Assembly: GCA_013178415.1 (NCBI GenBank)
Contig: JABLXA010000003.1
Span: forward strand, 815 to 64,814
Direction: 5' to 3'
Origin: Bacillota bacterium
GTDB taxonomy: Bacteria > Bacillota > SHA-98 > Ch115
DNA: 64,000 bases
How positions within the stretch are numbered: position 1 is the stretch's first letter; each line of letters starts with the position of its first letter. Made by a program: the position numbers and the translations under genes. The notes beneath the pieces were generated by a model. It was given only the letters and a program-made list of their open reading frames with translations, did not search any database and had not been told where the DNA came from. Shown here piece after piece: positions 3,932-34,095 of the stretch.

Positions 3932-4762
3932 TCATTGCCTGAGGAAGTTAACGAGCACCTTCCACTCCGGAAGAACATCCAGGGCGCTCTCTGGATTACT
4001 AATAATCCAGTCCCTGATACGCTCCCGGAATCGACCAGCATCTACACCATAAATCCGATTAAGCGCCGGTCCCAGAGCATAAAGGATGTCCTTCCCAGAG
4101 AACCAGACCAGGATATTCTCCCAGTTGGCACAGAAATCCTCGGTAAACTCAGCTATTTTACTTTCGAGTGAGCATGCTGATGTATGTGGCGATAAGGACT
4201 CGCTCACACGGTTCATGTATTCTGCTATGCACCCCAACGCCCATTCACCACATTGAATCTGATTTAACCAGGACGGTATTCCTAACTCGCGACCCTCCAG
4301 TTCAATAGGGCGGGTCTTGAGCTCATAGTGGGGAGGCAAAGTACGCCTTGCCATTCCAATAGTCCAACGCGCTGCCTCATAGAACCGGATCCTGAGAGCT
4401 GCCTCAATAAGGGCTGCTTCATAATCCTGACGCGCACCTGATGGCCAAATGAGAGCGATGAGGGCAGGGTCCAGGAGATAGTTCTCGATTTCATGCCGAC
4501 TCCAGTACCATCCCAGAGGCTCGGGAAAACGACCGTCCCTGATCTCGCCGGGCATATGATCCTGGTTAGGAGCAGGGTCAAAGTCGAAATCGCGATCGCG
4601 GACAAATGCTACACGCTGTCCAGTTCGTTTCCATTCTTGAACGGCAATGGGCTTGAGGGAGTATTTCGAACCCCGCGCCTCTACCGGAGGGGTGCCTTTC
4701 AGGATAGCGCCAAGGATATTAGCATCAAGATTACCCTCAACCAGAAGGAGGTTTACAGGCAT
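3932..4762 (-). CDS. DUF4435/OLD-type Toprim-like protein (AriB-like putative nuclease effector)
   Basis: N-terminal LLLVEGNLD (Toprim glutamate), RDRDFDFD (DxD), downstream HEIENYLLDP. Overlaps the upstream ATPase gene by 10 nt. Confidence 0.55.
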   Translation of the reverse strand: MPVNLLLVEGNLDANILGAILKGTPPVEARGSKYSLKPIAVQEWKRTGQRVAFVRDRDFDFDPAPNQDHMPGEIRDGRFPEPLGWYWSRHEIENYLLDPALIALIWPSGARQDYEAALIEAALRIRFYEAARWTIGMARRTLPPHYELKTRPIELEGRELGIPSWLNQIQCGEWALGCIAEYMNRVSESLSPHTSACSLESKIAEFTEDFCANWENILVWFSGKDILYALGPALNRIYGVDAGRFRERIRDWIISNPESALDVLPEWKVLVNFLRQ

Positions 4763-5859
4763 AGTCGTCCCCCCTTAAGGCGCATCTTCGAAGTCTCCGG
4801 GACAATATCGTCCAGATATTTCGAATGGGTCGTCACGATAAACTGGCAATCAGGCGCCAGTCTAGGGAGATTGCCATACAACGCCTGCTGTTCTGGGGGA
4901 TGTAGATGAAGCTCTAATTCATCTAAAAGAACTATGGATTTCACGATCTCAAGCCGTGTCATCTCATAGGCTAATGGAAAAACCGCCTGTTCCCCTGACG
5001 ACATCTCGGCAATGTCGTATGGGATGCTACAACCTTCGCGCTCAACCAGCACCAGGAAGTCAGAAGGGCCTGGAGCCTCAATTCCTTTTCTGGGTTCCGT
5101 TCCTACGAATCGGAAGCCTGGAAAAACCCGCTCCATGCGCTGCTGAAGCAAATGGATGTAGTCTCGTCCGCCAGGATCTGATCCTGGCCACGCCTTCCTC
5201 GTAAGGTGATAACTCCACCATACAACGAGATACGAACGGAGTTGCTCCACCCCCGCCGACCATGCGCCTGGTTTGGCTATTCCATTAAGATCAGGGTCGG
5301 TCGAAAGAGTGCCCAGATTCCTGAACTGATCAAACCAGAAGACATCCCCAACTCGTGCAAAGTCGCTGCGGAGGTCGGGCTTGATACGCTGAACACGCTT
5401 TAGATAGTACCGGCCGAGGAACTGCATTTTTGCCGCCGGCCCTTGCCGTGCCGTTACTTCGCCCCGGCTATACTGCAAAGTGACAGTCTTCGATTCCCCC
5501 GGGGGAATCCAACCGCGGGTTTCTTCTTTCGGAATCGCACTTTTACATTCCTCGTAGAGTCTGCGAGTCACAAGGATCTCATCATCGTCAAAGCCCACCT
5601 CTAGCTCGATGCGAGTCGGCCCAAGCGAATTCATTCGCTCAGGGATAAAACCATACCAGGGGAAGCTCTCAGGGTCTTTAACATGCCGCGTTGCTATCCC
5701 CAGAGTAAGCGCAATTGCCTGAAGCAGGGTTGTTTTCCCGGACCCGTTATCGCCCAGGATTAGAAGCCTGTCGCGGACCGATCCCTGTGCATCGCGAAAA
5801 TCCAGATCCAGCTCTCGCAGACCTTTAAACCGTTCTATATGTGCGCGTAGTAGCCTCAC
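4753..5859 (-). CDS. AAA_21/ABC-type ATPase (AriA-like)
   Basis: Walker A LILGDNGSGKTTLLQAI, signature-like EMSSGEQ, Walker B/D-loop IVLLDELELHLHP. Confidence 0.7.
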   Translation of the reverse strand: MRLLRAHIERFKGLRELDLDFRDAQGSVRDRLLILGDNGSGKTTLLQAIALTLGIATRHVKDPESFPWYGFIPERMNSLGPTRIELEVGFDDDEILVTRRLYEECKSAIPKEETRGWIPPGESKTVTLQYSRGEVTARQGPAAKMQFLGRYYLKRVQRIKPDLRSDFARVGDVFWFDQFRNLGTLSTDPDLNGIAKPGAWSAGVEQLRSYLVVWWSYHLTRKAWPGSDPGGRDYIHLLQQRMERVFPGFRFVGTEPRKGIEAPGPSDFLVLVEREGCSIPYDIAEMSSGEQAVFPLAYEMTRLEIVKSIVLLDELELHLHPPEQQALYGNLPRLAPDCQFIVTTHSKYLDDIVPETSKMRLKGGRLCL

Positions 5860-6159
5860 TCCCAGTTCACCCCTTCTCCTTCAAGGTGATTCCGCATGGA
5901 TCCCAGGCTATCACAAGCCAAATCTGTCATGCCGACTTCTGATGGCCTATTGAGGGGCAAGAGGGGCAGCAGCCTATTTTTACAGTATGGCAGAATCATC
6001 CACAACCACGCATCACGCCCCGCACCAGAGGACCTACACTCATTATATATTAGATTCGCGTACTGGCACAAGCAGGAAGTTCATCACTTCATCATTTCAC
6101 CATCCGCTCCTAATATGATAGAATCTCCTTGAACTCTTCTGCGAACGGGGGGAATTACC

Positions 6160-6699
6160 ATGGAACTCGTGGTTAACGGGACTCTACTCCGCTTCATTCG
6201 AGGAGACATAACCGCACAGGAGACCGACGCCATAGTCAATGCCGCCAATTCAAGCCTTATGGGTGGCGGCGGGGTGGATGGGGCGATACATAGAGCTGGT
6301 GGGCCGCAGATCCTTGAGGAATGCAAAAAGATCCGCCGGGAGAAGGGGCCTTGCCCGCCTGGAGAGGCGGTCATAACAACAGGAGGAATGCTCAAAGCCC
6401 GGTATGTGATTCATACTGTCGGCCCGATCTGGCAGGGCGGGGATCGCGGAGAGGATCAAATTCTCGCCAGTGCATACCGGAATAGCCTGAAGCTGGCAAA
6501 GGGCCATGGGATACGCACCATCTCATTTCCTTCAATCAGCACAGGGGCCTACCGTTTTCCAATAGAACGGGCCGCCAGGATAGCTCTCACCACCGTAAGG
6601 GAATTCCTGGCCGCTGAAGACGGGTTCGACGAAGTGCGATTCGTCCTGTTCAGCGATGCAGATTTAAGGGTTTATGAAGAAACGGCAACCGCGGAATAG
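6160..6699 (+). CDS. macro domain protein (O-acetyl-ADP-ribose deacetylase, YmdB-like)
   Basis: [34 protein letters not shown], canonical macro domain motifs; 179 aa. Confidence 0.85.
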
Positions 6700-6843
6700 G
6701 ACCGGGGCAACGGGATGTGCCTTACACCCGCCCCGCCAGCTACATCTGCCGCGCCAACTACACCCGTCCCGCCAGCCATTAAAATTCGAGTGAGTCGGCG
6801 GACAGGAGCTTTGACAGGCTTCTGGCCTGCGCTCCCCCAAACA

Positions 6844-6886
6844 TTGACTGATATGTCCGCTATGTTCATAATATATCTGAGAGGTG
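6844..6886 (+). promoter_or_regulatory. putative sigma-70-type promoter, palindromic operator-like box and RBS of the vapBC-1 cassette
   Basis: TTGACT - 17 bp - CATAAT, then gaggtg RBS 7 nt before ATG 6894. The core atatgtccgc[t/c]at[g/a]ttcataatata recurs at 12839-12865. Confidence 0.5.
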
Positions 6887-6893
6887 ATGGAAT

Positions 6894-7133
6894 ATGCCCG
6901 TGGTCCGAATTGGCAAACGTGGGACCATGATACTGCCTGCCGGCATTCGCCATAAAATGGATATCCGACAGGGGGATGAAATGCTTGTCGAAATGGATGA
7001 GCGGGGGACCCTTCACATGATGAAAAAGCCCAAGGATTTTGCAGCCGCGCTCCGTAACTTGCACAAGGACATATGGGAGGGAATAGACCCTATTCAGTAT
7101 GTGAGAGAGGAACGGGCTTCATGGGAAAAGTAG
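6894..7133 (+). CDS. vapB: AbrB/MazE (SpoVT-AbrB) family antitoxin
   Basis: MPVVRIGKRGTMILPAGIRHKMDIRQGDEMLVEMDE, a swapped-hairpin AbrB fold signature. Overlaps the downstream PIN gene. Confidence 0.7.
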   Translation: MPVVRIGKRGTMILPAGIRHKMDIRQGDEMLVEMDERGTLHMMKKPKDFAAALRNLHKDIWEGIDPIQYVREERASWEK

Positions 7134-7576
7134 CCGGCTTACTCGAGAACTGCAGGTACATCGGAATCGATACTAATTGCTTTATTTTTCAGTTCGATAG
7201 TGACCATTATCCCCAGCAAGCTCCTCTCGCTCAGGAGCTGTTCGAACTGGTACAATCCGGCAGGATAAAGGCAATCACTTCGCCAATAACAATTACCGAG
7301 ATTATGACCCTTCCGCGCCGACTGGGATTGGAAGATGTCGCATATCAGTATAAACTGCTCCTGATGAATTTCCCCAATCTCGAGATCCAGGACATCACTG
7401 CTGAGGTAGCAGACCGTGCGGCGTTTTTGCGGGGAGTTTATAATCTCAAGACGCCGGATGCTTTGCAGTGTGCCGCAGCACTCGTGGCGGGAGCAGATGC
7501 TCTTGTGACTTTTGACAGGGGTATGTCCAGGGTGCAACCGGCCCTCCAAGTAATAGTCCTGGATGTCGATCCATGA
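7121..7576 (+). CDS. vapC: PIN-domain toxin VapC
   Basis: IGIDTNCFIF at the start with later conserved acidic residues. Start trimmed to Met at 7121 (the track ORF starts at 7073) to give the typical TA overlap. Confidence 0.7.
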   Translation: MGKVAGLLENCRYIGIDTNCFIFQFDSDHYPQQAPLAQELFELVQSGRIKAITSPITITEIMTLPRRLGLEDVAYQYKLLLMNFPNLEIQDITAEVADRAAFLRGVYNLKTPDALQCAAALVAGADALVTFDRGMSRVQPALQVIVLDVDP

Positions 7577-7603
7577 TTCAGCTGTTCAGGTATGGAATAA
7601 ACA

Positions 7604-7654
7604 TGGCCGCTGAAGATGGATTTGACGAGGTGCGGTTCGCCCTGTTCAGCGATG
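7604..7654 (+). repeat. degenerate duplicate of the macro-domain gene 3' end (6609-6659)
   Basis: 51 nt with 45 identical; all 6 differences are transitions and the encoded [11 protein letters not shown](V/A)LFSDA is preserved. Confidence 0.75.
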
Positions 7655-7869
7655 CCCACTCCGCCGGCCGAATTCGACAGGCAAGAGATGCCGGGAGTAC
7701 CATTTACAGGATGGACAATCTATTGACGAACTCTGCACTTCCGCCAAATCTCCTTTTGTATCCTCTGGGTCGCTCGTCAGTAGACCACCTGGTACATAAT
7801 TCGGGATTTTACACATCTTGCCGCTCTCATTCCGATGTGTTATCTTCACCTTATGGATGGTGAGAATTC

Positions 7870-10800
7870 GTGATTTTGCACGGGACATGGATTCCTCTGC
7901 TGGGAAGAGGCGGTGCAGGCGGCGACAGCAACGTGGCGGCCCTCACGTCGCACAACATAAACTATTCAGACATAGAAGGATGTTTTTTTGTCTGGGGAGA
8001 GCGCTCTCCAGCTGCGACTGTCGATAGCCAGGGCGTGGCCGGGGCTTCCACTAACTCTTATGTGTTACATGGCCAGGCAGAGAAGTGGGACACAAGGGCT
8101 GGGACGGACACAAGGGGTGGGGATAAGGATTCATCGCGGTATCAGCCCCTTCGGTGCCATCCTTTCCAGGCCTCACGGAATGATTTGGTCGACGCGCTCC
8201 GGCACCTTGCCGGACTCAGGCTCCGTGACCTGGACGGCGCCGCGCGGAGGGCGCGCGTAGTGATGTTCCTGCCGTCAAGGGGCGAACGTCCCGAACCTTC
8301 CAATTCTTTTATCTTGGAATCGCCGCAGGATTCCATGAGCGCGGGCCAGCACGATCCCGCGGGCCAGAACGATCCTGGGGACCGGGATGATCCCGCAGGT
8401 CAGGATGATTCCGGAGAGGAATCTCGCGCGGGACAAGCTACCGCGGGAGGGGTTCCTTCAGGTGAAGTTGCCATGGGCCGGACGGCCGCCGAAAAGGCGA
8501 CCCTCGCTCCCTGGGAGGTCAGCGGAATCGCACTCCCCGCTTCCAGTGCGCTGAGATTCCTGGTTATCTTATCACAGAGTGATGGCATGAGTACTGGGCC
8601 TGGTGACGGTGGGCCTAGCGACGGCTGGCCTGGTGATGGCTGGGATGACGCCGCCGGCGACCTCGATAAGTCTCAGGTTTCAACCGGCCAGGATATAAGG
8701 TTTTGGAGCAAGGTGGCCAAGCTCGCCCTTGAGCTCATGGCGCGGGAAAGGTTTTCCCCCACAGTGGTCAGCGCGCAGTCAACCATCCTTAAACATGGTG
8801 CCGGTTCTGGTGACAGCATGGCGGCGGCCTGCCACGACGACGCTCCGGCCCCTGACGTCTCCGGCGTCCGTGGCATCCCCGGCCGCAGCGCCGGCAAAAG
8901 ATCGAAGCATCGCAGGGGCAATATCAGGAGCAACAAGAAGGATGCTACTGCCGCAGAGGACGAGACGAGATTTAGAGCCACCTGGCTTCCTGTCTTAAAT
9001 ACCGCTGGCGATGTGGAGCGTCTTCAATCACTTCAGGAGTCCATGCCAGCCATATGCAGGGCGATACCGGTCCTCGAGTCATCTGTCCCCGAAGCTCGCT
9101 CCTTGTTGATGAGCTTCCTGGACACATGTGTGGATGAGATGGTCCGGGAGTGGATTTCGACAGAGTCGCGCAAGGGTCATGAGGAATGGCGCAGGGATCA
9201 CGAAACCAATGCTCGCAGGATCGGGACCCGCGAGACCTATAAGGATGACTATTTCCTGAATAGGGAGCTGCGCAGGCATTTCCTGGATAAACCGAAAGCA
9301 AGGAAGGGCGGCACAGTAGCTGGCAACTGGCTCTCGGGTCTCACCTCTGATGAAGTGCTCCTCAAGGGGCCGACCCGGGAAATCAAGGAATTCTGCCGTG
9401 CGATTTCGGACTGGTCGCAGGAGATACGCGGGACCGGAGCCAGAGCGGCATTTCGGACCTGCTTCCGCCTGGAACCGCCGGCGGAGGCGGATGCTGAGAT
9501 GGGGGAAACGCCCGCGAAAGTGGGGGGAAGCGATTCGTCGCAGCCATCATCGCGTGCATCATCGCGGTCGTCCCCGCGGTCGTCGAAGGCTCCCGTAGAG
9601 CTTGATGGAGGGCTCTGGCACCTGCGGTTTCTCCTCCAGGCCGTGGATGACCCGAGCCTCCTGATCCCTGCGGAGAGGGTATGGCAGGAGCAAAAGCGAA
9701 CTCTGGAATTCATGAACCGCCGGTTTGAGAATCCGCAGGAAAGACTCCTTCACGACCTGGGCCGGGCTTCGCGGCTCTTTCCAAAGATAGAAGAGAGCCT
9801 CAAGACAGCCTGCCCTGAAGCGTGCCAACTTACGGTCCATGAGGCATACTCCTTCCTGCGGGACGTGGTCCCGGTCCTGGAAGAGAGCGGGTTTGGGGTA
9901 CTGGTCCCCGCCTGGTGGAATCCCAACGGTAACGGGCCGGCGCGCCTGGGCATCAGGCTGCGGCTCGTCAGTAAAGAGAAAAGAAAGACCAGCAGCCGGA
10001 AAGATACTGTGATCGCCAGCCAGGGCAACCTCGGTCTCGACAGCCTCATCAACTATGACTGGCAGGTTGCCCTCGGCGGGCAGGTGATGAGCCGGGAGGA
10101 ATTTGAGAGGCTTGCGGCGCTGAAGGTGCCCCTTGTCCGCATCAGGGGCGAATGGATCGAGCTGAGGACTGAGGACATCGAGGCCGCCATATGCTTTTGG
10201 GAAAACCGCGGGAAGGCCGGGCAGATGAGGGTCCGTGAGGCTCTTGCGCTGGCCCTTGCCGGTGATAACGGCAGCCACGGCTTGCCCGTGGTTGGGGTGG
10301 ATGCTGAGGGCCGTATCGCAGATCTCATCCAGCAGCTCAAGGACGGGGAAAAGGTTAGCGAGCTCCCTCAGCCTTCAGATTTGTCGGGTCAACTCAGGCC
10401 TTATCAGATAAGGGGCTATTCATGGCTTTCGTCCATGTCTCGTTGGGGGCTCGGAGCATGCCTTGCCGATGACATGGGACTCGGCAAGACCATACAGGTG
10501 ATCGCAATGCTGCTCCGCGCAAAAGAGGAAGGTCGCGCCCAGGGTCCGGCTCTGCTCATCTGCCCCACGTCTCTCGTGGGCAACTGGAGGCATGAGCTTG
10601 CCCGCTTCGGGCCTTCTCTCCGGGTGATGATTCATCATGGAGGAGGAAGGCTTACAGGATCAGAATTCGTGAAAGAAGCCATGGCAAACGATATAGTTCT
10701 CAGCACCTATACGCTTGCTCATCGCGACGAGAAGGACCTCTCCAAGGTGGAATGGGGCGCCATTATCCTCGATGAGGCGCAAAACATAAAGAATTCAGCC

Positions 10801-11829
10801 GCCAAACAGAGTCAGAGCGTACGCAGGCTGAAATCCGGTGTCAGGATCGCGCTCACCGGAACTCCCATTGAAAACCGCCTCTCCGAGCTATGGTCGATCA
10901 TGGAATTCCTGAACCCCGGTTTCTTTGGGACTCAGAAGAGCTTCCGGGCGCAGTTTGCCATTCCGATAGAACGATACCGGAACCAGCATAAGATGAAGCA
11001 ATTGCAGCGTCTGGTCCAGCCTTTTGTCCTGCGGCGTCTCAAGACCGATAGGCGAATCATTCAGGATTTGCCCGAAAAGCAGGAGATGAAGGTGTTTTGC
11101 ACCCTCACCAGGGAGCAGGCCACACTGTATGAGGCTGTCGTAAGGGATATGATGGAAAAGATCGAGGGCGCGGAGGGCATAGAACGTAGGGGGGCTGTCC
11201 TCGCCACGCTCCTGAAGCTAAAGCAGGTCTGCAACCACCCTGCGCAATTCCTTGGAGATGGCAGCCCGCTTGCGGGACGCTCGGGAAAGCTATCGCGGCT
11301 TACCGAGATGCTGGAGGAAGCGCTTGCTGCTGGAGACCGGGCACTGATTTTCACGCAATTCGCCACGATGGGCGAAATGCTAAAGACTTACCTCGAACGC
11401 GTCCTGCATCGAGAAGTTCTATTTCTGCATGGAGCAGTGCCGCAAAAGGTGAGGGATAAAATGGTGACAAGATTCCAGGAAGATCCCGACGGTCCGCCCA
11501 TATTCATTCTCTCCCTAAAGGCTGGTGGCCTGGGACTGAATCTTACCCGGGCCAATCATGTGTTCCATTTCGACCGGTGGTGGAATCCCGCCGTGGAAAA
11601 TCAGGCTACGGACCGGGCATTTCGGATCGGTCAGACCCGCGATGTGCTGGTGCACAAATTCATATGCGCTGGCACGCTGGAGGAGAGGATCGACGAGATG
11701 ATAGAAGGCAAAAAGTACCTGGCCGAAAATGTGATCGGGACCGGAGAGGAATGGCTGACCGAGATGTCCACCGATGAGCTACGAGAGATCTTTGCTCTAC
11801 GCGGCAGCGCGGTAGTGGAGGAGGATTAG
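7870..11829 (+). CDS. SNF2-family helicase (YwqA-like) with ~830 aa low-complexity N-terminal region; start uncertain
   Basis: LRPYQIRGYSWL...DDMGLGKT (motif I), DEAQNIKN (motif II), helicase-C QTRDVLVHKFI. The N-terminus has acidic/proline repeats (AGQHDPAGQNDPGDRDDPAGQDD). Confidence 0.85.
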   Translation: MILHGTWIPLLGRGGAGGDSNVAALTSHNINYSDIEGCFFVWGERSPAATVDSQGVAGASTNSYVLHGQAEKWDTRAGTDTRGGDKDSSRYQPLRCHPFQASRNDLVDALRHLAGLRLRDLDGAARRARVVMFLPSRGERPEPSNSFILESPQDSMSAGQHDPAGQNDPGDRDDPAGQDDSGEESRAGQATAGGVPSGEVAMGRTAAEKATLAPWEVSGIALPASSALRFLVILSQSDGMSTGPGDGGPSDGWPGDGWDDAAGDLDKSQVSTGQDIRFWSKVAKLALELMARERFSPTVVSAQSTILKHGAGSGDSMAAACHDDAPAPDVSGVRGIPGRSAGKRSKHRRGNIRSNKKDATAAEDETRFRATWLPVLNTAGDVERLQSLQESMPAICRAIPVLESSVPEARSLLMSFLDTCVDEMVREWISTESRKGHEEWRRDHETNARRIGTRETYKDDYFLNRELRRHFLDKPKARKGGTVAGNWLSGLTSDEVLLKGPTREIKEFCRAISDWSQEIRGTGARAAFRTCFRLEPPAEADAEMGETPAKVGGSDSSQPSSRASSRSSPRSSKAPVELDGGLWHLRFLLQAVDDPSLLIPAERVWQEQKRTLEFMNRRFENPQERLLHDLGRASRLFPKIEESLKTACPEACQLTVHEAYSFLRDVVPVLEESGFGVLVPAWWNPNGNGPARLGIRLRLVSKEKRKTSSRKDTVIASQGNLGLDSLINYDWQVALGGQVMSREEFERLAALKVPLVRIRGEWIELRTEDIEAAICFWENRGKAGQMRVREALALALAGDNGSHGLPVVGVDAEGRIADLIQQLKDGEKVSELPQPSDLSGQLRPYQIRGYSWLSSMSRWGLGACLADDMGLGKTIQVIAMLLRAKEEGRAQGPALLICPTSLVGNWRHELARFGPSLRVMIHHGGGRLTGSEFVKEAMANDIVLSTYTLAHRDEKDLSKVEWGAIILDEAQNIKNSAAKQSQSVRRLKSGVRIALTGTPIENRLSELWSIMEFLNPGFFGTQKSFRAQFAIPIERYRNQHKMKQLQRLVQPFVLRRLKTDRRIIQDLPEKQEMKVFCTLTREQATLYEAVVRDMMEKIEGAEGIERRGAVLATLLKLKQVCNHPAQFLGDGSPLAGRSGKLSRLTEMLEEALAAGDRALIFTQFATMGEMLKTYLERVLHREVLFLHGAVPQKVRDKMVTRFQEDPDGPPIFILSLKAGGLGLNLTRANHVFHFDRWWNPAVENQATDRAFRIGQTRDVLVHKFICAGTLEERIDEMIEGKKYLAENVIGTGEEWLTEMSTDELREIFALRGSAVVEED

Positions 11830-11838
11830 GCGCGCACC

Positions 11839-12387
11839 ATGGGCAAGAAGAATGAGTTCGGCGAAAACTGGTGGGCAAAACGATGGCTCTCTGTGCTGGA
11901 ATCCTTTGGGTGGGCAAACCGGCTGCAGAGGGAACGTTCTTACGCCCGCGGCGGGAACGTCCTCGATATCGATATCCAGCCGGGCATGGTCAAGGCTGAG
12001 GTGCAAGGTTCGCGACCGAGACCCTACCGGGTCACAATAAAAATGCAACCATTGTCGGACAAAGAGTGGGACCGCGTGATCTCAGCCATGGCAGGTAAGG
12101 CGATCTTCGCTGCGCGCCTGCTGGCCGGGGAAATGCCGGAGAACATCGAGGAGGCTTTTGCCAGCTCACGGGTAAGCCTTTTCCCCAAATCCTCGAGCGA
12201 CATCACCACGAGCTGCTCATGTCCTGATTGGGCTAACCCCTGCAAGCATGTGGCTGCGGTGTATTATTTGCTGGGCGAGAGATTCGACGGAGACCCATTC
12301 TTGCTCTTCCGCCTTCGCGGCCGGAGCCGCGAGGAGCTCACGGAGGCCCTGCGGCAGAGACGCGCTGCGGAGGTCTCTGAAAAATGA
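11839..12387 (+). CDS. SWIM zinc-finger protein (YwqB-like partner of the SNF2 helicase)
   Basis: CSCPDWANPCKHVAAVYYLL CxC...CxH SWIM signature. Starts 10 nt after the helicase stop. Confidence 0.75.
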   Translation: MGKKNEFGENWWAKRWLSVLESFGWANRLQRERSYARGGNVLDIDIQPGMVKAEVQGSRPRPYRVTIKMQPLSDKEWDRVISAMAGKAIFAARLLAGEMPENIEEAFASSRVSLFPKSSSDITTSCSCPDWANPCKHVAAVYYLLGERFDGDPFLLFRLRGRSREELTEALRQRRAAEVSEK

Positions 12388-12865: not shown

Positions 12866-13075
12866 ATGGGTGAGTAGTCTGCAACAAATAGGGCGCCGGC
12901 GCCCCCTCAAATAGGTTGGCACGCGATGGGAAATGATCCCAGGAGGAACGATTGAGCCGGGGAACGAATGAGGCGGGACCAACGACGCACATCACGGGTA
13001 AGGCGAAAAGACTGAACCGCATGCCTATTGAATATCTCTATTGATTATGCTATCCTGTTTGTCAGGGGTGATTTT

Positions 13076-13294
13076 ATGCAACTCAATATCTACATTCCTA
13101 AAGAGAAAAGCAGCGTATTAGCTGCCCTGGACCGGATCGCGGAAACGACCAAACGTCCCAAGAACGAAATAGTCCTTGAAGCGCTTGAACGTTATTTGCC
13201 TGCCGTAGCTCCAACCATGCTCGGAGAATACAGTCTGGGAAAGATAAGCAAAGTCAGCCGCGCAGATCTCTATGAGGGAAGGTTAAAGCCTTGA
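13076..13294 (+). CDS. vapB: ribbon-helix-helix (CopG-like) antitoxin
   Basis: MQLNIYIPKEKSSVLAALDRIAETTKRPKNEIVLEALERYL, an RHH beta-strand/helix pattern. RBS aggggtg lies before ATG 13076 (the track ORF starts at TTG 13028). Overlaps the PIN gene by 4 nt. Confidence 0.65.
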   Translation: MQLNIYIPKEKSSVLAALDRIAETTKRPKNEIVLEALERYLPAVAPTMLGEYSLGKISKVSRADLYEGRLKP

Positions 13295-13749
13295 TTCTCG
13301 TGGACACAAATGTCCTGGTCCATGCCATCAACACCGATGCTCCGCAGCATGAAATGAGCAGGGCTCTAGTAAAGGCCGTCCAAACAAGGCGGCTCGATGG
13401 CGCATTATTGCCTCAGATTCTCCTGGAGTTTTTCGCCATAATCACAGATGGACGCCGCGTTGCAAGGCCTCTTGGAGCGAAGGAAGCATGGGAGCAGGTG
13501 AAGCTCTTGAAGGTCATCTTCCCGGTGCTGGATGCAGGACTCAAGTCCCTGGAGTACCTCAAAGATGCAGTAACAGAAGGAAAGGTAAAGGGCAGTGACA
13601 TTTTCAATGCCTATCTGGTTGCCCAGATGAGAGCTTGTGGCATCTCCGTCATCTGCACCTATAATACCAGAGATTTCCAAAAGTACAGCGGTATCATTGT
13701 ACAAACACCAGAAGAGCTCATCCCCAGCCGTCAGGATTCGGGACATTAG
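13291..13749 (+). CDS. vapC: PIN-domain toxin VapC (second copy)
   Basis: MILVDTNVLVHAIN is the PIN N-terminal D motif; 152 aa. Confidence 0.75.
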   Translation: MILVDTNVLVHAINTDAPQHEMSRALVKAVQTRRLDGALLPQILLEFFAIITDGRRVARPLGAKEAWEQVKLLKVIFPVLDAGLKSLEYLKDAVTEGKVKGSDIFNAYLVAQMRACGISVICTYNTRDFQKYSGIIVQTPEELIPSRQDSGH

Positions 13750-13853
13750 GTGCGTTTAGGCTTATAGTGTCATAGCAGAGACGATCCATGGGCTCTTAAT
13801 TATGTATAATGAAAACAATGCTAAAATGACCGGATTTTCAGGGGGTATCAAAA

Positions 13854-14144
13854 GTGCCTGGAAGAGAAGAAATTGAAGCAAGGTCAAAGAAGTATAAACC
13901 CTTTTTGGCCGGGCGATTTAAAGTAAAAGAGATCGGCCTTTTCGGCTCCTGTATCCGGGGGGAGCAAACCGAAGGCAGTGACGTGGATATTCTTGTGGAA
14001 TTCAGCGCGCCCATCGGGTGGGAATTTATTGACCTCAAGGATTTTTTGGAATCACTCTTGGGGCTTAAAGTAGACTTAGTAACCGGAGGGGCCCTTAAAC
14101 CCCAAATGAAGGATCGCATCCTGCAGGAGGTCGTCTACCAATGA
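13854..14144 (+). CDS. minimal nucleotidyltransferase (MNT, type VII antitoxin)
   Basis: GLFGSCIRGEQTEGSDVDILVEF, the GS...DxD nucleotidyltransferase motif. Confidence 0.8.
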   Translation: MPGREEIEARSKKYKPFLAGRFKVKEIGLFGSCIRGEQTEGSDVDILVEFSAPIGWEFIDLKDFLESLLGLKVDLVTGGALKPQMKDRILQEVVYQ

Positions 14145-14380
14145 AGCAAAAGTCCGCCAAAATCTTTGTCGAAGATATCCCTGGCGCTATAAGCAAGATC
14201 GAACACTATACTCAGGGTATGGTTTATGATGCATTCTTCGAAGACGAGCGGACCGTAGACGCCGTAATCCGGAATCTCGAAATTATTGGTGAAGCCGCGC
14301 GAAACATCCCGAAGGATCTTCCCCGGACAAAACCAAAAAAAGAATCAATGCGTAGTCATCTTAAGATTGAAGATGCCTAA
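14141..14380 (+). CDS. HepT/DUF86 HEPN-like toxin, apparently C-terminally truncated
   Basis: AVIRNLEIIGEAARNIPKDL matches the DUF86 core, but the ORF ends 20 aa later without the R-x4-HxY motif. A poly-A run (aaaaaaa) just before the divergence suggests a frameshift. Confidence 0.5.
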   Translation: MKQKSAKIFVEDIPGAISKIEHYTQGMVYDAFFEDERTVDAVIRNLEIIGEAARNIPKDLPRTKPKKESMRSHLKIEDA

Positions 14381-14404: not shown

Positions 14405-15145
14405 TTAGCCCGGCTCCGCCTTCACCTGTCTCTCCGCCTTCTTCCTATACATAACACACAACTGGTCAAGGGTTTTTGCATATGGCCCGCCGAGGTCGAC
14501 GTCGTTGAGCCGCAGGTGTGCCGGAAGGTGTCGCCTGATTCCCTCCAAGCTCAGGTCGCCGCGGGTCACGGTCACAAGCGTGATCCCATTGTTGTGGCTT
14601 AGGGCGAGTTTCATCAGATCATGTGACTGTGCCTGCTTGACGCCGGTTTCGCTCCTGTAGACCACAGTTATGGTGTAATGCTGGTCTCCATTGTATTCAA
14701 AGGCGACAGCCTCGTCTGGCAGGTAGAGGTCATATTCCAGGGGTTTACTGGTCAGCGGGTTGGCTAAAAAGCCCGGACGGGCGTTTTCCACCCAAACATC
14801 GCAGCATACCCAGAATAGCACGATACACTTCATCAGGAATTCGCCCTTATATCGGGCCATAGCAAACCTGGAGTTTAGGTCGGCGGCCATCTTTTCCTGA
14901 TAGTCCGCAGGGATCAGGGCTACCGGTCGCAGACTCTTGCCTTGCTTAACCAGTTTGAGCCACCCTGCAGATGCAAGCCCCTCACAGGCCCGCATGGCCC
15001 TGTAGCGGCCAAGCGAGGACTTTGCGATGAGTTCCTTCATGCTGGTTGGTTTCAGGTGTTGGATGAGAATATAGAGCGCCCGCTCCTCAAAGCCGAGGTC
15101 CGCCGCACTACACAGTCCATCCAGAACACACTTGGGTATCCACAA
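14405..15145 (-). CDS. hypothetical: N-terminal winged-helix domain plus C-terminal Vsr/DUF559-like restriction-endonuclease fold
   Basis: MarR-like wHTH (LIQHLKPTSMKELIAKSSLGRYRAMRACEGLASAGWL); YDLYLPDEAVAFEYNGDQHY resembles the DUF559 PD-(D/E)xK core. Confidence 0.45.
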   Translation of the reverse strand: MWIPKCVLDGLCSAADLGFEERALYILIQHLKPTSMKELIAKSSLGRYRAMRACEGLASAGWLKLVKQGKSLRPVALIPADYQEKMAADLNSRFAMARYKGEFLMKCIVLFWVCCDVWVENARPGFLANPLTSKPLEYDLYLPDEAVAFEYNGDQHYTITVVYRSETGVKQAQSHDLMKLALSHNNGITLVTVTRGDLSLEGIRRHLPAHLRLNDVDLGGPYAKTLDQLCVMYRKKAERQVKAEPG

Positions 15146-15369
15146 TGGTCTAACTCCCCCCTCCCGGGCTTTGACCGCATCTAAGTATCTAACTGGAACT
15201 GGAATCGCATAACCGCAACTACACTACTATTGTATCACATTTTGGGTGTAATTGGAAGCCGTGGGCGAACGTGGAAGCCATGGCCGGACGCGGTAATCAG
15301 AGATCCGGCTAAACAATGGCGCCAACACCTCTAGCTGGAGCCGTAACAGACGTTATTTGGCGGAAATAG

Positions 15370-15713
15370 TGTTAGTGGCCAGCACTATCCGCCGGGAACA
15401 ATGTTAGTAGCCAGCATCGTCCAGCGGAGATAATGTTAGTGGTTAGCATCGTCCGGCGGGGACAATGCTAATGGCTAGCACTGTTCGTCAGGAACAATAT
15501 TACTGGCTAGCACTATCCGGCGGGGACGATGTTAGTGGCTAACACTGTCCGCCGGGAACAATGCTAATGGCTAGCATCGTCTGCCAAGGACAGTGTTAGC
15601 AGCTCGCATCATCTGCCGGGGTAGTGTTAAAGGCTAGCATCGTCCGCAGAAGATAATGCTAATAGCTAGCACTATCTCCCGCCGACAGTGTTAATAGTTA
15701 ATAGTGTATTGCA
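15370..15713. repeat. tandem array of ~11 degenerate 32-bp units, each with a short inverted repeat (array B1)
   Basis: Units like GTTAGTGGCTAGCACTATCCGCCGGGAACAAT; TAGTG...CACTA arms around GCTAGC; no constant-repeat/variable-spacer partition. Confidence 0.8.
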
Positions 15714-15848: not shown

Positions 15849-15919
15849 CGTATAGGTCTCTCCTGGCCACAGCGCACAGGTCTCTCCTGCCCACAGCGTA
15901 TAGATCGCCCTGGCCATCG
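15849..15919. repeat. 3 x 24-bp tandem repeat
   Basis: cgtataggtctctcctggccacag / cgcacaggtctctcctgcccacag / cgtatagatcgccctggccatcg. Confidence 0.7.
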
Positions 15920-21600: not shown

Positions 21601-23181
21601 CTACTCCGCCTCCTCCGCCCTGCACACAAAAGAGCCGTCTTTCGTCGGATATGCGGAGAAGAACCTCCTGCCGCATTTGGGGCAGGTGAGGGGTTCGACT
21701 GAATTCGTGGCCAGGTTGTAGAAGACTTCCTGTGTATAGACCGAATCTTTATGCTGCACTTCGAGAATGGCCTTGACCTTCGGCATCACCTGGATTGTCA
21801 CGCTATCAAGACGCGCCTCAGCCGTCATCTTATACTTTCCGATGACATCCGATATTCGCCGTTGTCGATCCAATTGGGTTGCCTGTATCTTGGCCTCTAT
21901 CCGCGACTTTTTCTCAGGATCGCCGGCCGTCTCTGCCCTGGCCTTAAGATCCTCCAGAGTCTTTTCATAGAATCCCAGCACCTTCACAAGTTCTCTCTGG
22001 CAAAAGCCGCTTACCTCTACCTGATATGTGGCCAGCCTGGCCCTGGACATCTCCTGGAGGCGGGCCAGCGCGGCGTCAAGAACCTCTTTATAGGGGCGCC
22101 TCTCTGCCAAAGGGATTCCCGGGTAAGGTGCCCTATTAGCACTGCCTGCCCTATTGGCACTATCTGCTCCATTGGCCCTGTCGGCCGTGCTAGTCGCGCC
22201 ATCGGAAGAAACAGGATTTCTCGCGCGCCCGGATGCGTCTCGGACATAAGGCGCCTCACCACCGTCACCGCCTTTGTGCGCTACTTGAGCCATAGGACGT
22301 GACCCCGCGCTTCCAGACAGCATGTCCAGGTCATCGCTCCAGAACACCGTCCTGGATTCATCGAGGAGATCAGTGTCATCCGCAAGGGTGCTGGCATCAA
22401 TGGCAATAGCTATAGAATCGCTGAATTTCTCGTCCGAGATATATGACACTATGAATCGGAACACCACCCTTTCATACGCCTGGATGGTGGTTGTCTTGAG
22501 CGTGGGCCGTCTGCAGCGATTGAAACCGACCTTACTCTCGATCCTGCCCATGAGGTTTTGGGGAACCCTGATAGCTGAAACCATGGCAGACTCCCTTATC
22601 ACACGCCCGACTTCGCTCCCGAGCGAAATGAACTTGTCAAGCGCAGGGCTGCCGAAGGTCACAAACTCGGCCCCAGGAGTCTCTTTCGCCACATCATAGT
22701 CGAAGGCGAGGGTCGCGAATTCCGGAAGAGAAAACCTGGCTGCAATATCCCCGGGCAGGGCCACATTAACGAGGGCATAGCTCGGGACCTCGACGATCCC
22801 TCCCGTGATTGTCACAAGGTCAAGAATAAATCTCTGGAGGTCGCCACGGCGCTCTTGGTCCTGCGGTCGTCCACTCTCCACTCCACCAGTCGCAAATTGC
22901 CTGCCCTCCGCAACACAGGAATCCGCCCTGCGATCGTTGTTTTCCGCATGATTGTTGTTTCCCACATGATCGCTATCTCCCGCCTGACCATTATTTCTAT
23001 TCCCCGCGCGACCGTTATTCCCCGCGCGACCGTTATTCCCCGCGCGCCCTCGATGCTCAACCTGCTCCGTATTCCTCTTTCCACCTCTGTCCCTATTTCC
23101 GCTTCTATCCTCAGCGCGCGGTTTCTCGGCGGTCTTGGCATCCGCTTGTCCTGTCGATCGCGCTAGGTTGGACCTCACCAT
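21601..23181 (-). CDS. hypothetical protein with N-terminal G/N/R-rich repeats and C-terminal zinc ribbon (possibly YqhG-like partner of the downstream-encoded SNF2 helicase)
   Basis: GRAGNNGRAGNNGRAGN repeats encoded by 3 x 18-bp DNA repeats; C-terminal CPKCGRRF...FVCRAEE; co-directional with, and immediately downstream of, the helicase. Confidence 0.45.
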   Translation of the reverse strand: MVRSNLARSTGQADAKTAEKPRAEDRSGNRDRGGKRNTEQVEHRGRAGNNGRAGNNGRAGNRNNGQAGDSDHVGNNNHAENNDRRADSCVAEGRQFATGGVESGRPQDQERRGDLQRFILDLVTITGGIVEVPSYALVNVALPGDIAARFSLPEFATLAFDYDVAKETPGAEFVTFGSPALDKFISLGSEVGRVIRESAMVSAIRVPQNLMGRIESKVGFNRCRRPTLKTTTIQAYERVVFRFIVSYISDEKFSDSIAIAIDASTLADDTDLLDESRTVFWSDDLDMLSGSAGSRPMAQVAHKGGDGGEAPYVRDASGRARNPVSSDGATSTADRANGADSANRAGSANRAPYPGIPLAERRPYKEVLDAALARLQEMSRARLATYQVEVSGFCQRELVKVLGFYEKTLEDLKARAETAGDPEKKSRIEAKIQATQLDRQRRISDVIGKYKMTAEARLDSVTIQVMPKVKAILEVQHKDSVYTQEVFYNLATNSVEPLTCPKCGRRFFSAYPTKDGSFVCRAEEAE

Positions 23182-23395
23182 TTACGATCCCCTCTCCCAA
23201 ATAAGACAGATCCATTCGCACTTTACTTTCTCGAGTCAGACTGGTTCATTCGCGTTTTCCTCTCCCGCATCAAACACAGATTCATTCGGACATTCCGCTC
23301 CCAAACCAGACAAGTCTATTTGCGCCTTCCTATCCCGAATCAGACTGGCCCATTCGCGCTTTCCCCTCCCGAATCAAACGCGGCTATCCGCTCAC
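23179..23395. repeat. ~6 degenerate tandem 36-bp repeats in the helicase / Zn-ribbon intergenic region
   Basis: Consensus CATTCGCGYTTTCCYCTCCCGAATCARACRCAGAYT repeated from 23179 to 23395. Confidence 0.7.
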
Positions 23396-25921
23396 GGCCT
23401 TCCCTTCCGCTTTCGACTCCTGCTCCGCTGAACTCAATTCAGAACCAAATATCTTGTCATCATATTCCTTCGTCTGTTCATACCGGGCCTTAGCCTGAGC
23501 CAATTTCTCCCCAAGGGAATCGAATCCCTGTCGAAGTTCTTCCTCAGTCTTGGCGCCCGCCCAGAGGTCCATGATAGTATCCTCAAAGTCCTCTTCTTCC
23601 TCCACATTGCCCAGGATCATGTCCAGTTCGCCTATCACCAGCTCGAACATGTTGATCTTCGCATCAAGAATGTCGAGTATATGCGCCTCAAGGGTCTCGG
23701 CGGCTGACAGGTTGAAAACAAAGACATCATTCTCCTGGCCGATTCTATGAATTCGGCCAATCCGCTGCTCTATCTTCATGGGGTTCCATGGGAGGTCGAA
23801 ATTCGCCATGACATGACAGAATTGAAGGTTCCGCCCTTCCCCGCCTGACTCAGTTGAAAGAAGCACCTGCTTATCCCCTCTGAAGGCCTCGACAGCTCGT
23901 TCCTTATCTAGGCGCGGCATTTCCCCTGAAAAAGTTGCAAACTGTATCCCCGACTTTTTCAGAAATTGAGCGAGGAATTCCAGTGTAGCAGTATAGCCAG
24001 TAAAGACCAGGACCTTTTCTCCGGTATTCTGAAGGAGTTTCAGGAGAGCCTGGGCCTTCGCCGAGTCTTCAATAGCCTCCCCTATATCGATAAGAAACCT
24101 TAGATCTTTCCTGGCGCCGTTGAAATTCCCCGAATCAAGCATCTTGCGGAGGGTCGGCACCGCGGCGAAGGCGCTAGAGCCAGCTTCTTTCTGGAGTGTT
24201 TTCAAGGTGAACCTGTTAACCGCTTTCCCATTAGCCCGCCCATCAAGCCCTGCGCCATATTGTGCCCTGACGAATTCACTCACCTTTGAATAGAATTCCG
24301 CCTCTTGTGGACTGAGCGCGACTCGCACGGTTTCCGCCCTTCTCCTGGGAAGCTGAATGCCGCATGTTTCGCGGCGGTTCCGCACCATAACCTCCTTCAT
24401 TAGCCCACGCAATTCTGAGACATTCCTCGGCTTGAGCTTGTCCCCCCTGGTGATGAACCTCCGGGAGAAATCAGATGCCGTCTCAAGCTGGCCTGGGCGG
24501 AGAAGGGTTATGAGGTTGAAAAGTTCATGAAGATCATTCTGCACTGGAGTCGCGGTGAGAAGGAGAATGTATTTCTTTTTGAGTCCATTTACGAGCTTCC
24601 AGTTGAGGGTATTCTTGTTGCGGCACCGGTGCGCCTCATCGACGATCACAAGATCGAATGGTGCAGATTGAACCAGTCTGCTATGTGGTTCGCGCTTCGC
24701 AGTGTCGATAGACGCGATGATCCTGTCCACCTCGAGCCAGGGATTCTTGCGCGCAAGAAAAGATGGATCATCGGATGTGACAAAATCTATGTTGAATTTG
24801 GACCGCATTTCATCCATCCACTGAGACATGAGTGGCGGCGGGCATAAAATCAATACTCGCTTGGCGAGTCCCCTGAGAATATATTCCATCATCACGAGGC
24901 CGGCTTCAATTGTCTTGCCAAGTCCCACCTCATCAGCGAGGATAGCGCGACCGCGCATTCTCCGGAGCACTTCTTTCACTGCGCCGACCTGATATGTGAA
25001 TGGCAGGATATTTCGAACAACATCGAGCGATATCAGCCTGTCAAAACCCGGACTCGTAGAAAGAACAAGGGCCTTTCTGTGGACTTCCGCGCTTTCGCGG
25101 CTGTCGAATTGCCCCGCCTGGAGCCTCTTGAGCATCCCTTCTATAGACTCCTGGTCCACAGGGATTATGATATCCCCCGGCACGGAGAAAAGCTGGGCCT
25201 TGATAATATCTCGGGCCATTTTTTCGAAATCGATGACCTTCTGGCGATCAGATTCGACACTGATAGCCTTCTCGCGGCCGGATTCACCACCACCGGCAGC
25301 TTTCCGGTCATCGGACTCACCGGCAATACCCTTCCGCTGGTGAGACCCGCCAGTGGCATCGACTTCAGCGCGCTGCTTACTATAGTCAATTCTTTTGTTG
25401 GGGTCAGAGCTTTTGCCAGCGCCAGTAGCCCTGGGTCCGGAAAGACCTTTGTCACTAGCGATATTCCCTCGGACCCCTTTCCTTGCCCTGCTCTCAAGTA
25501 ACTTTGCAATGCTCATGCGTCCCGCCGCTATTTGCTGCTTTATCAGAAACGCGTCAACAAGACTAATATCTATTCCTTCAATATCAGCGATCTCAGCGGC
25601 AGTAACGAACATATAGACTCTCTTAACATTATTTGTTTTTCCAATATATAGATATGGATTTTCATCTTTGAGGTTGTCCCCCATAATCTCGACAAAGAAC
25701 TCCCATAGGCCGGGCGCGAAGATAACACTATGCCTGCGGTGGAATTCAGCGGTAATGGATATGTTATGGGTTAGACCGCCCAAAGTAAGAAATTCCACAT
25801 CCCGCTTATGTGGAAGGATCTCCTTGACATCCTTGTCCACATGCAGCATATCGCGCGCTAACAATGTGACATCCAGGCGGATCTTTATCAAATCATATGG
25901 ATGCACATGGACCTCAAGCAA
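23384..25921 (-). CDS. SNF2-family helicase (YqhH-like) with ~330 aa N-terminal region of unknown function
   Basis: ILADEVGLGKTIEAGLVM (motif I), DEAHRCRN (II), helicase-C LLSTESGGEGRNLQFCHVMANFDLPWNPMKIEQRIGRIHRIGQ. Confidence 0.85.
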   Translation of the reverse strand: MLEVHVHPYDLIKIRLDVTLLARDMLHVDKDVKEILPHKRDVEFLTLGGLTHNISITAEFHRRHSVIFAPGLWEFFVEIMGDNLKDENPYLYIGKTNNVKRVYMFVTAAEIADIEGIDISLVDAFLIKQQIAAGRMSIAKLLESRARKGVRGNIASDKGLSGPRATGAGKSSDPNKRIDYSKQRAEVDATGGSHQRKGIAGESDDRKAAGGGESGREKAISVESDRQKVIDFEKMARDIIKAQLFSVPGDIIIPVDQESIEGMLKRLQAGQFDSRESAEVHRKALVLSTSPGFDRLISLDVVRNILPFTYQVGAVKEVLRRMRGRAILADEVGLGKTIEAGLVMMEYILRGLAKRVLILCPPPLMSQWMDEMRSKFNIDFVTSDDPSFLARKNPWLEVDRIIASIDTAKREPHSRLVQSAPFDLVIVDEAHRCRNKNTLNWKLVNGLKKKYILLLTATPVQNDLHELFNLITLLRPGQLETASDFSRRFITRGDKLKPRNVSELRGLMKEVMVRNRRETCGIQLPRRRAETVRVALSPQEAEFYSKVSEFVRAQYGAGLDGRANGKAVNRFTLKTLQKEAGSSAFAAVPTLRKMLDSGNFNGARKDLRFLIDIGEAIEDSAKAQALLKLLQNTGEKVLVFTGYTATLEFLAQFLKKSGIQFATFSGEMPRLDKERAVEAFRGDKQVLLSTESGGEGRNLQFCHVMANFDLPWNPMKIEQRIGRIHRIGQENDVFVFNLSAAETLEAHILDILDAKINMFELVIGELDMILGNVEEEEDFEDTIMDLWAGAKTEEELRQGFDSLGEKLAQAKARYEQTKEYDDKIFGSELSSAEQESKAEGKAVSG

Positions 25922-31519: not shown

Positions 31520-31650
31520 GAATTTTCATCCTTCTGATGGTATCGCTGCAGCGGCATAGAGGGCTACTTCGAAAATAGCTGAGCGCCATTTTCATTTTTC
31601 GTTGGTACCGCCCCGGCGGCATGGAGGGCTACCCCGAAAACTAGCGCCCC
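31520..31650 (+). repeat. family A dispersed element, two tandem copies (A5, A6)
   Basis: ggaattttcatccttctgatggtatcgctgcagcggcatagagggctacttcgaaaatagc; gccattttcatttttcgttggtaccgccccggcggcatggagggctaccccgaaaactagc. Confidence 0.7.
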
Positions 31651-34072: not shown

Positions 34073-34095
34073 TGCTCATGGGTGATAACACTTGC

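Follow-up and report, generated by a model that had tools for sequence, protein, structure and literature searches.

The 64-kb window analysed here, a stretch of 64,000 nucleotides from contig JABLXA010000003.1 (assembly GCA_013178415.1), is chromosomal DNA of an uncultured Firmicutes-type bacterium of biogas reactors, and it carries long tandem arrays of units with a period close to 32 bp. We propose, with a probability of roughly 0.55 and on the evidence of sequence comparison, that these are phased, cooperative binding-site arrays for dimeric DNA-binding proteins and not RNA genes or guide arrays. The arrays are periodic and built on dyad-symmetric sites that are under constraint, one of them shows conserved linkage to the gene beside it, and covariation of the RNA type is absent; from these properties we infer protein binding, the identity of one binder, cooperativity and a regulatory outcome. 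The first array (locus 1) lies upstream of a gene for a winged helix-turn-helix (wHTH) protein with a nuclease-like domain, and the second and third (loci 2 and 3) flank a block of housekeeping genes.

Tandem arrays with a period of three helical turns

An initial annotation of the window had described tandem ~32-bp arrays at three loci, and Tandem Repeats Finder (TRF), autocorrelation and a motif scan confirmed that these are real and periodic. Their periods of 31–34 bp correspond to about three helical turns, and each unit holds one symmetric DNA site of ~20 bp and a linker of ~12 bp. The arrays are non-coding, with stops in all frames and no open reading frame (ORF) common to the loci, and strong position weight matrix (PWM) matches within the 64 kb are confined to them. 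The count of three proved too low, a fourth array of like design at 23191–23376 having been missed. The proposal that the three loci form one class held for the periodicity but not for the sequences: locus 1 is one family, whereas a second, composite element is present as two paralogues, loci 2 and 3, which are inverted relative to each other. Since only two arrays with a period of 28–38 bp, both unrelated, were found in 483 kb of other DNA, the window is unusually rich in arrays of this kind.

The annotation had named collapsed or expanded assembly as a possible refutation, which is unlikely. An independent assembly of the same species from a biogas fermenter (L004; ENA ERZ925059), 99.5% identical to the window over 10.35 kb, spans the whole of locus 3, and recurrence of this locus at identical length, with nine single-nucleotide polymorphisms (SNPs), argues that the arrays are not assembly artefacts. 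Over window positions 48968–59317, the two assemblies differ by 54 substitutions (~47 transitions and 7 transversions), a strain-level distance with a strong transition bias. Further sequences of the same species are the Logan contigs L001, L098, L099 and L100, the last of which confirms the distal end (two units) of the long arm of locus 2, and a homologous array of the locus 1 type is present in another sample (L006). Same-species short-read (Logan) contigs end at window positions 14434, 29487 and 57315, that is, at the 3′ end of the wHTH–nuclease gene (of which a paralogue with 83% identity exists), inside the long arm of locus 2 and inside the core of locus 3; repeats break short-read assemblies.

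The locus 1 array and the adjacent wHTH–nuclease gene

Locus 1 (15340–15713, minus strand), delimited by TRF, autocorrelation, register and PWM matches, is made up of about 11 units of 32 bp arranged head to tail, within an intergenic region of 927 bp between divergent genes. In the sense of the gene (minus strand) its consensus reads CATTGTCCCCGGCGGACAGTG-CTAGCCATTAA, and each unit is composed of a 21-bp dyad, CAYYGTCC-N5-GGAYRRTG, and an 11-bp linker. The dyads run from 15383–15403 every 32 bp to 15670–15690, with one unit 1 bp short and a degenerate proximal unit at 15351–15371, and the register holds for ten full units and degenerate end units. TRF reported a period of 32 at 15359–15576 (6.8 copies), 15558–15641 and 15376–15672. 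Over its whole length the array has a self-identity of 0.65 at lag 32, versus 0.22–0.27 at lags 31 and 33, and the best 160-bp segment reaches 0.75; a 96-bp higher-order repeat suggested by TRF was rejected, as identity at lag 96 (0.57) is not above that at lag 64 (0.59). PWM matches of 20–29 bits occur only inside this array. The hairpin TAGTG-GCTAG-CACTA that had been taken for the core of the unit is a lineage-specific linker together with one dyad arm, and the conserved dyad is the one given above. Similarly, the ~14-nt variable tail ascribed to all units is found at loci 2 and 3 but not at locus 1, where the whole unit is conserved (linker identity of 0.76 within the array).

The adjacent gene (14405–15145, minus strand) encodes a protein of 246 amino acids, which we analysed with an AlphaFold2 (AF2) model, PHROG and Pfam searches and a match to a protein from a metagenome-assembled genome (MAG). 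It consists of an N-terminal wHTH, a helical linker and a C-terminal nuclease-like domain. In the AF2 model the wHTH occupies residues 1–76, with a block-mean predicted local distance difference test (pLDDT) score of about 80–93, and the nuclease part is poorly modelled. Foldseek with this model returned only generic MarR/ArsR/TrmB-type wHTH matches, none with E ≤ 0.001, and the Pfam matches (MarR_2/TrmB/IclR) were weak. Residues 133–208 match phage ‘HNH/homing endonuclease’ families of PHROG with E values of 9e-11 and 2e-9, and we read the motif YDLYLP...AFEYNGDQH in the nuclease part as possibly Vsr/DUF559-like. No Pfam, NCBIfam or PADLOC family was assigned to the protein. It is 100% identical to HPY52_03100 of a MAG labelled ‘Firmicutes bacterium’, which also encodes the 83% identical paralogue HPY52_16720. 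The gene is monocistronic, and an MNT/HEPN pair in convergent orientation comes after it.

Between the array and the gene, the window and L006 both keep a ..TGATACAATAG.. block, which is the best-conserved non-coding block. Inspection by eye identified a probable extended −10 element (TGA-TACAAT; 15229–15237, minus strand) conserved between the window and L006, and a more distant homologue, L010, has TGATACTAAT at the matching position. From this element it is ~80 bp downstream to the TTG start and ~140 bp to the closest full unit of the array; the element was not flagged by a simple promoter scan of the sequence and is probably the extended −10 promoter of the wHTH–nuclease gene. Because this conserved −10-like block lies between the array and the gene, the array would be situated upstream of the promoter.

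Comparison with homologues supported the link that the initial annotation had drawn between the array and the adjacent wHTH protein. L006, a Logan contig from another sample, encodes a protein (P0006) that is 73% identical to the window protein, and at least 12 units of 32 bp stand at the same distance from its gene, in register with the window array; the contig begins inside the array. Dyad identity between locus 1 and L006 is 0.62, equal to the 0.61–0.68 seen within each array, whereas identity of the 11-bp linker is 0.65–0.76 within arrays and 0.31 between species (CTAGCCACTAA versus CTCATTTTGCA). Thus, the array, its 32-bp period, its register and its count of ~11–12 units have been kept across 27% protein divergence, while the linker has been replaced completely. 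In L087 (41% amino acid identity), at least two clear ~34-bp units containing CTGTC.CC, and possibly four by eye, lie directly upstream of the gene, where the contig starts in the array. In L007 and L008 (37–38%), TAGCTATACCGACAGCTA occurs five to six times in two clusters, at spacings of 31–63 bp, and L010 has a 20-nt inverted repeat with a third half-site 63 bp off. The homologous genes sit in mutually unrelated, ordinary chromosomal neighbourhoods. Repeated dyad sites that lie upstream of the regulator gene and seem to be inherited with it are therefore found in the window, L006, L087, L007/L008 and L010, and the repeat sequence and the protein appear to co-diverge between lineages. On this comparative basis, the 246-amino-acid protein is probably the cognate binder of the locus 1 array.

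On a 1-kb metagenome contig (L050), a 34-bp × 4.8 tandem array (GACAGAGTCAGAATGAAGACGGAGTCAGGAGTCA; 867–1023) follows a distant homologue of the nuclease domain (31% identity, residues 106–193), which may be another pairing of nuclease and array.

Loci 2 and 3, paralogous copies of a composite element

Loci 2 (29046–29545, plus strand) and 3 (56967–57487, minus strand) had been described as plain arrays. Each locus contains 14–15 sites, spaced 31–32 bp; overlooked were an AT-rich core that splits each array and the mutual inversion of the two copies, and locus 3 extends to about 57487 instead of ending at 57463. The site is CTGGCGAAAATTTCGCCAC. The motif CTGGCGANNNTNTCGCCAC, with up to three mismatches, has 26 matches against 2.2 expected (~12-fold), 20 of them in loci 2 and 3, and none of 100 shuffles reached 26. 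TRF saw only 29096–29202 of the two loci, the remaining units being too divergent.

At locus 2 (all on the plus strand), a short arm (29046–29199) of five 19-bp sites, starting at 29046, 29085, 29117, 29149 and 29181, is followed by the 74-bp AT-rich core (29200–29273; CCAATATATACCATAAAGT...TGGATAAT.ATA.CC...AATTTTCCAAT in the alignment with locus 3) and by a long arm (29274–29545) of eight recognisable sites and one degenerate (~29369, GACCCAG), 31–32 bp apart. The long-arm sites start at 29274, 29306, 29338, (degenerate), 29400, 29432, 29464, 29495 and 29527. Locus 3 (all on the minus strand) comprises a long arm (56967–57301) of ten sites and one degenerate (~57206, GACCCAG), which is the positional homologue of the locus 2 long arm; a core (57302–57375) paralogous to 29200–29273, inside which Logan contig L001 starts at 57315; and a short arm (57376–57487) of three clear sites (57394, 57426 and 57458) and a weak terminal one at 57487, which ends 124 bp upstream of a hepT-like gene at 57611.

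About 370 bp of the two loci can be aligned once one of them is inverted, and the copies are 74% identical. Their cores share 19 identical bases (CCAATATATACCATAAAGT) and further conserved blocks, 93 bp separate the starts of the sites flanking the core in either copy, which nearly keeps the phase across it, and the fourth long-arm unit is degenerate (GACCCAG) in both. Spacers of 12–13 bp are 52% identical between positional partners and 36% between non-partners, which indicates an old duplication of the entire element rather than two independent arrays. Within the 19-bp site, none of the 11 partner pairs differs at T2, G3, C17 or A18, and identity between the loci is higher for sites than for spacers (Fisher p=0.012). 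Across the 27 units of loci 2 and 3, G3 and C17 are invariant and T2, G15 and A18 are at least 90% conserved. The right half of the site (GCCAC) is better kept than the left (CTGNC), making the site slightly asymmetric, which fits the head-to-tail layout. The nine SNPs that separate locus 3 from L004 fall in spacers, in the variable part of the core or at site positions 1 and 4, with none at the six best-conserved positions, and locus 3 evolves ~3 times faster than its mostly coding surroundings (nine SNPs in 500 bp versus 0.5% overall).

The nearest relative that we obtained, L005 (GCA_012842565.1), whose hepT-like protein is 53% identical, is syntenic but lacks locus 3; as a 107-amino-acid gene abuts the hepT-like gene there, the ~930 bp of intergenic DNA that contain locus 3 are lineage-specific. 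Both copies run from the long arm through the core and the short arm to a gene reading away (the hepT-like gene at 57611, plus strand; an OmpR-type response regulator, 27830–28582, minus strand), and this shared order makes it plausible that loci 2 and 3 affect neighbouring promoters. The two loci flank core housekeeping genes (dnaE, accDA, pfkA and pyk).

Further copies of the element were sought by several routes. The 19-nt core pattern had two stray matches, without motif matches, among GTDB species-representative genomes; viral contigs scanned with three patterns gave isolated chance matches only, and none for the core pattern with 22 specified bases; and an ORF-based search for further cores of this kind yielded no candidates. 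A plasmid BLAST search with both elements and the 246-amino-acid protein returned nothing relevant. Alignment of the two copies in the 64 kb revealed no recognisable terminal inverted repeats or target-site duplications. We also considered the two loci, inverted and 28 kb apart, as transposon ends, and rejected this because the interval contains dnaE, accDA, pfkA, pyk and efflux genes and no transposase. An archaeal origin recognition box (ORB)/oriC was likewise rejected, the genes of the window being bacterial (OmpR-type regulator, flagellin, TolC).

Near locus 2, 80–180 bp from its short arm, DnaA-box-like 9-mers cluster within ~100 bp (28865–28964): TATGGATAA, TTATCCACA and ATATCCACA, with weaker ones. 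Apart from TTATCCACA the 64 kb contain no perfect DnaA box; the locus 3 core includes one with a single mismatch, TTATCCATA (57335–57343).

A fourth array and other tandem repeats

The fourth array (23191–23376) comprises 5.4 copies of a 34-bp unit (CCTCTCCCGAATCAGACAGGTCCATTCGCGCTTT), as seen by TRF, in the sequence and by autocorrelation (0.59 at lag 34). Read by eye, the unit consists of a CGAAT-N11-ATTCG dyad and a linker of ~13 bp, and the array stands between two minus-strand genes. It is a third sequence family, apart from locus 1 and from loci 2 and 3. The array lies just upstream of a 526-amino-acid ORF without a family match, whose N-terminal region contains 18-bp (6-amino-acid) coding repeats (22856–23166). 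Elsewhere in the window, intergenic tandem duplications of 65 bp × 1.9, 26 bp × 2.0 and 24 bp × 2.7 occur at 31522–31745 and 15854–15916; the genome seems generally prone to intergenic tandem repeats.

Duplex DNA sites, hairpins or guides

Each unit could form a hairpin of 5–8 bp, and conserved blocks alternate with variable stretches in loci 2 and 3 in a superficial repeat–spacer pattern; both features would suit transcribed arrays that give structured or processed RNAs, whether hairpin arrays or guides of the type of clustered regularly interspaced short palindromic repeats (CRISPR) or TIGR. Dyad pairing, however, did not exceed what column composition predicts. In the 27 units of loci 2 and 3, 71.4% of cells are paired, versus 71.3% after column shuffling and 25–51% in slid controls; in the 19 units of the locus 1 family, the corresponding values are 84.2%, 85.0% and 24–60%. 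With samples of this small size (27 and 19 units), no compensatory changes that keep the stem, as expected of REP-like hairpins, were found beyond column composition in either site family. Departures from dyad symmetry are balanced between G-U and A-C (27:21 and 15:17). As pairing equals that of shuffled columns and departures are strand-symmetric, no hairpin appears to be selected on either strand; balanced, uncompensated dyads would be expected of half-sites under independent selection, but not of a hairpin. Rfam 15, searched over the window, identified only a tRNA-Leu; at E ≤ 1, loci 2 and 3 had no matches and locus 1 had three far-sub-threshold matches to eukaryotic miRNAs, which we regard as noise. 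Given the null covariation, the lack of strand bias and the lack of an Rfam match, the hairpin or RNA model was rejected, so that of the two options offered by the initial annotation, iteron or operator arrays fit and structured RNA arrays do not. The differences between array units are mostly transitions (transitions to transversions, 44:9 and 67:13); these are not a sign of RNA wobble or editing, because the ratio matches the neutral strain spectrum of ~47:7.

CRISPR arrays consist of near-identical repeats of ~23–50 bp and unique spacers alike in length, with a period of ~55–75 bp, and are accompanied by cas genes. The annotation’s statement that the arrays are not CRISPR stands: the period is 32–34 bp, the repeated part is a degenerate 19–21-bp dyad (mean column identity of 63–70%), and Pfam scans, which took in ORFs of at least 120 amino acids and covered most of the window, revealed no Cas domain. 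In loci 2 and 3, the 13-bp ‘spacers’ of one paralogue are homologous by position to those of the other and have diverged by point mutation; they were not acquired. TIGR-Tas systems combine 36-nt units, each containing two variable spacers, with a neighbouring gene for a Nop-domain Tas protein; here the units measure 32–34 bp, and no Nop-domain protein was found in the scanned ORFs. In addition, the locus 1 array appears to lie upstream of the promoter of its gene, and sigma-70 and terminator scans found no bracketing promoter or terminator.

By contrast with these RNA models, sites in duplex DNA under purifying selection best fit the sequence comparisons. Constraint on such sites is indicated by three observations: the dyad is conserved equally across and within species, key positions are fixed in the paralogues, and SNPs avoid them.

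Gene setting of the window

The window includes the housekeeping block dnaE-accD-accA-pfkA-pyk, flagellin, an OmpR-type two-component pair and a TolC/MacAB efflux system. Its gene content at 3932–12387 and 23384–25921 is like that of a defence island, with a Septu PtuA-like AAA ATPase (4753–5859) and a partner ORF, a Macro-domain protein, a PIN protein, a 1319-amino-acid SNF2 helicase (ZorD/DpdE-like) followed by a SWIM zinc-finger protein, and a second SNF2 helicase (BrxHI/DrmD-like). VapBC-like and MNT/HEPN pairs occupy 13028–14380. At 33369–34578, next to the MacAB–TolC efflux operon, a tRNA-Leu(CAA) precedes a truncated ORF for a tyrosine recombinase (181 amino acids) and an HTH protein, an arrangement that looks like the remnant of an element integrated at the tRNA gene.

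Discussion

Based on these findings, we propose a plausible mode of action for the arrays. A repeat of 31–34 bp, about three turns, would set successive sites on one face of the helix; because of this spacing, dimers bound there could touch, and their contacts would give a cooperative filament or a wrapped complex. Locus 1 would be a heritable module of array, ~140 bp, promoter and wHTH–nuclease gene, in which the 246-amino-acid protein, assembled on the array, might bring about switch-like autoregulation and/or keep a nuclease that could do harm sequestered. The factor that binds loci 2 and 3 would probably be encoded elsewhere.

Several points weigh against this proposal. No candidate protein is encoded next to loci 2 and 3 or the 23.2-kb array, no known motif identifies the binder of the array sites, the comparisons draw on only two copies of the element of loci 2 and 3 and on three or four informative homologous loci for locus 1, and a sigma-70 scan of its cores found no convincing promoter. 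The array is not universal in the wHTH–nuclease family, L013 and L015 having no obvious upstream repeats. The three closest arrays are probably homologous by descent, and the linkage is therefore conserved synteny and not a repeated independent association. Finally, the SNP argument is weak; by our own estimate the probability that nine SNPs all miss the ten best-conserved of 32 positions is ~0.03. We take likenesses of the sites to the Spo0A 0A box (TGNCGAA), sigma-54 −24/−12 elements, CIRCE, the pho box and Fur-like sites to be leads only.

Of the three alternatives, which we weigh in the order of minisatellites, iterons or centromeres, and RNA or guide arrays, the first is unlikely but the most serious. 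Here, slippage or unequal recombination would have multiplied a single operator- or terminator-like palindrome; the array as such would have no function, and no site but the founding one would ever have mattered. Such turnover would account for linkers that are homogenised within arrays and unrelated between species, for the excess of transitions among units that resembles the strain spectrum, for the fast evolution of locus 3 and its absence from L005, and it agrees with a genome rich in tandem repeats generally. It does not readily explain why presence, period, register and unit count of the locus 1 array were kept across the 27% protein divergence despite linker replacement, why key site positions are fixed in 11 of 11 partner pairs with spacers at only 52%, why strain SNPs avoid the conserved positions, or why the phase is kept across the core in both paralogues.

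Distinctly less probable is that the arrays are iteron origins or centromere-like partition sites of an integrated plasmid-like replicon, the wHTH protein being an initiator or a centromere-binding protein. The architecture itself is suggestive: direct repeats each contain a dyad, and at loci 2 and 3 two sets of them flank an AT-rich core in phase. Features of iteron origins are unevenly distributed, with the AT-rich core at loci 2 and 3, the DnaA-box-like cluster by locus 2 and one weak box at locus 3, and neither feature at locus 1. A weak match of PHROG 270 (‘replication initiation protein’; E=0.17) covers the wHTH, and the centromere-binding wHTH protein AspA is among the weak fold matches. 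Yet the scanned ORFs revealed no plasmid genes, whether for a partition NTPase, Rep, a relaxase or otherwise, and no ParA-, ParM- or TubZ-like gene lies beside any array. Loci 2 and 3 flank housekeeping genes, homologues of the wHTH gene are in ordinary chromosomal contexts, no plasmid or phage DNA matches were obtained, and the cumulative GC skew does not turn at locus 2. RNA or guide arrays, given the uncompensated dyads, degenerate repeats and homologous spacers described above, are highly improbable.

The closest known systems share parts of this architecture. F-plasmid sopC consists of 12 direct repeats of 43 bp, each with a 7-bp inverted repeat bound by SopB, and R1 parC of two sets of five iterons around the parMR promoter core, bound by ParR. 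The window arrays are like these in being long and head-to-tail with one dyad-symmetric site per unit and helical phasing; at loci 2 and 3 two repeat sets surround an AT-rich promoter-like core in phase, and at locus 1 the array is upstream of the gene for a small DNA-binding protein. Unlike sopC and parC, however, they are chromosomal, with no gene for a ParA, ParM or TubZ NTPase and no sequence similarity to plasmids, their period is 32 bp and not 43 or 11, and the candidate binder has a nuclease-like domain. In iterons of theta plasmids and phages (pPS10, P1, lambda ori), 3–9 copies, usually spaced ~22 bp apart, precede an autoregulated rep gene. Locus 1 is similar in that direct repeats lie upstream of the putative promoter of a winged-helix gene, with repeat and protein appearing to co-diverge, but it has no replicon context or recognisable Rep domain, and no AT-rich unwinding element lies beside it.

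Lrp/FFRP proteins, with sites ~three turns apart, TrmBL2 and BldC provide examples of cooperative operator arrays in which DNA is wrapped or filaments form; TrmBL2 is also the top, non-significant Foldseek match of the 246-amino-acid protein. Multiple phased (w)HTH sites with ~30–32-bp spacing and dimers on one face would be common to these systems and the window arrays. The known cases comprise 2–6 sites, whereas the window has 11–15 near-perfectly periodic units, and no family could be assigned to its protein. Pneumococcal BOX, boxA-(boxB)n-boxC, is a modular intergenic repeat of Firmicutes, to which clusters of repetitive extragenic palindromes (REP) and bacterial interspersed mosaic elements (BIME) are comparable. 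Loci 2 and 3 resemble it as a composite, dispersed non-coding element with a reiterated internal module, which appears as an insertion relative to L005; they differ in being two copies in 64 kb at 74% identity, with all units direct and at a fixed 32-bp phase. Overall, the arrays resemble centromeres, iterons and operator arrays in mechanism but could be placed in none of the plasmid, CRISPR, TIGR or Rfam classes, and the only family-level property that sequence comparison points to is that repeated dyad sites are inherited with the wHTH gene.

A bolder extension of our proposal is that array, promoter and wHTH–nuclease gene form a self-contained, undescribed chromosomal module, in which a nuclease of a selfish or defence type would polymerise on its own 11-unit, three-turn-phased array as a platform for storage, self-marking or sensing. 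The remaining arrays (loci 2 and 3 and the one at 23.2 kb) would then be orphan platforms of this nucleoprotein system, in a lineage with a dedicated class of phased-iteron chromatin elements. Searches of the literature found nothing specific, and we consider this extension a long shot.

If the arrays are minisatellites only, the finding is ordinary. They also matter for annotation, as such arrays attract spurious ORF calls and could be mistaken for CRISPR-like or RNA features. If they are cooperative platforms, they would be an unusually clean natural case, with 11–15 near-perfectly phased dyad sites in a chromosome, and one array would have co-evolved with an uncharacterised wHTH–nuclease family, providing a directly testable protein–DNA pair. 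They would also serve as a model for how operator sites expand into homogenised arrays by concerted evolution while the binding dyad stays fixed.

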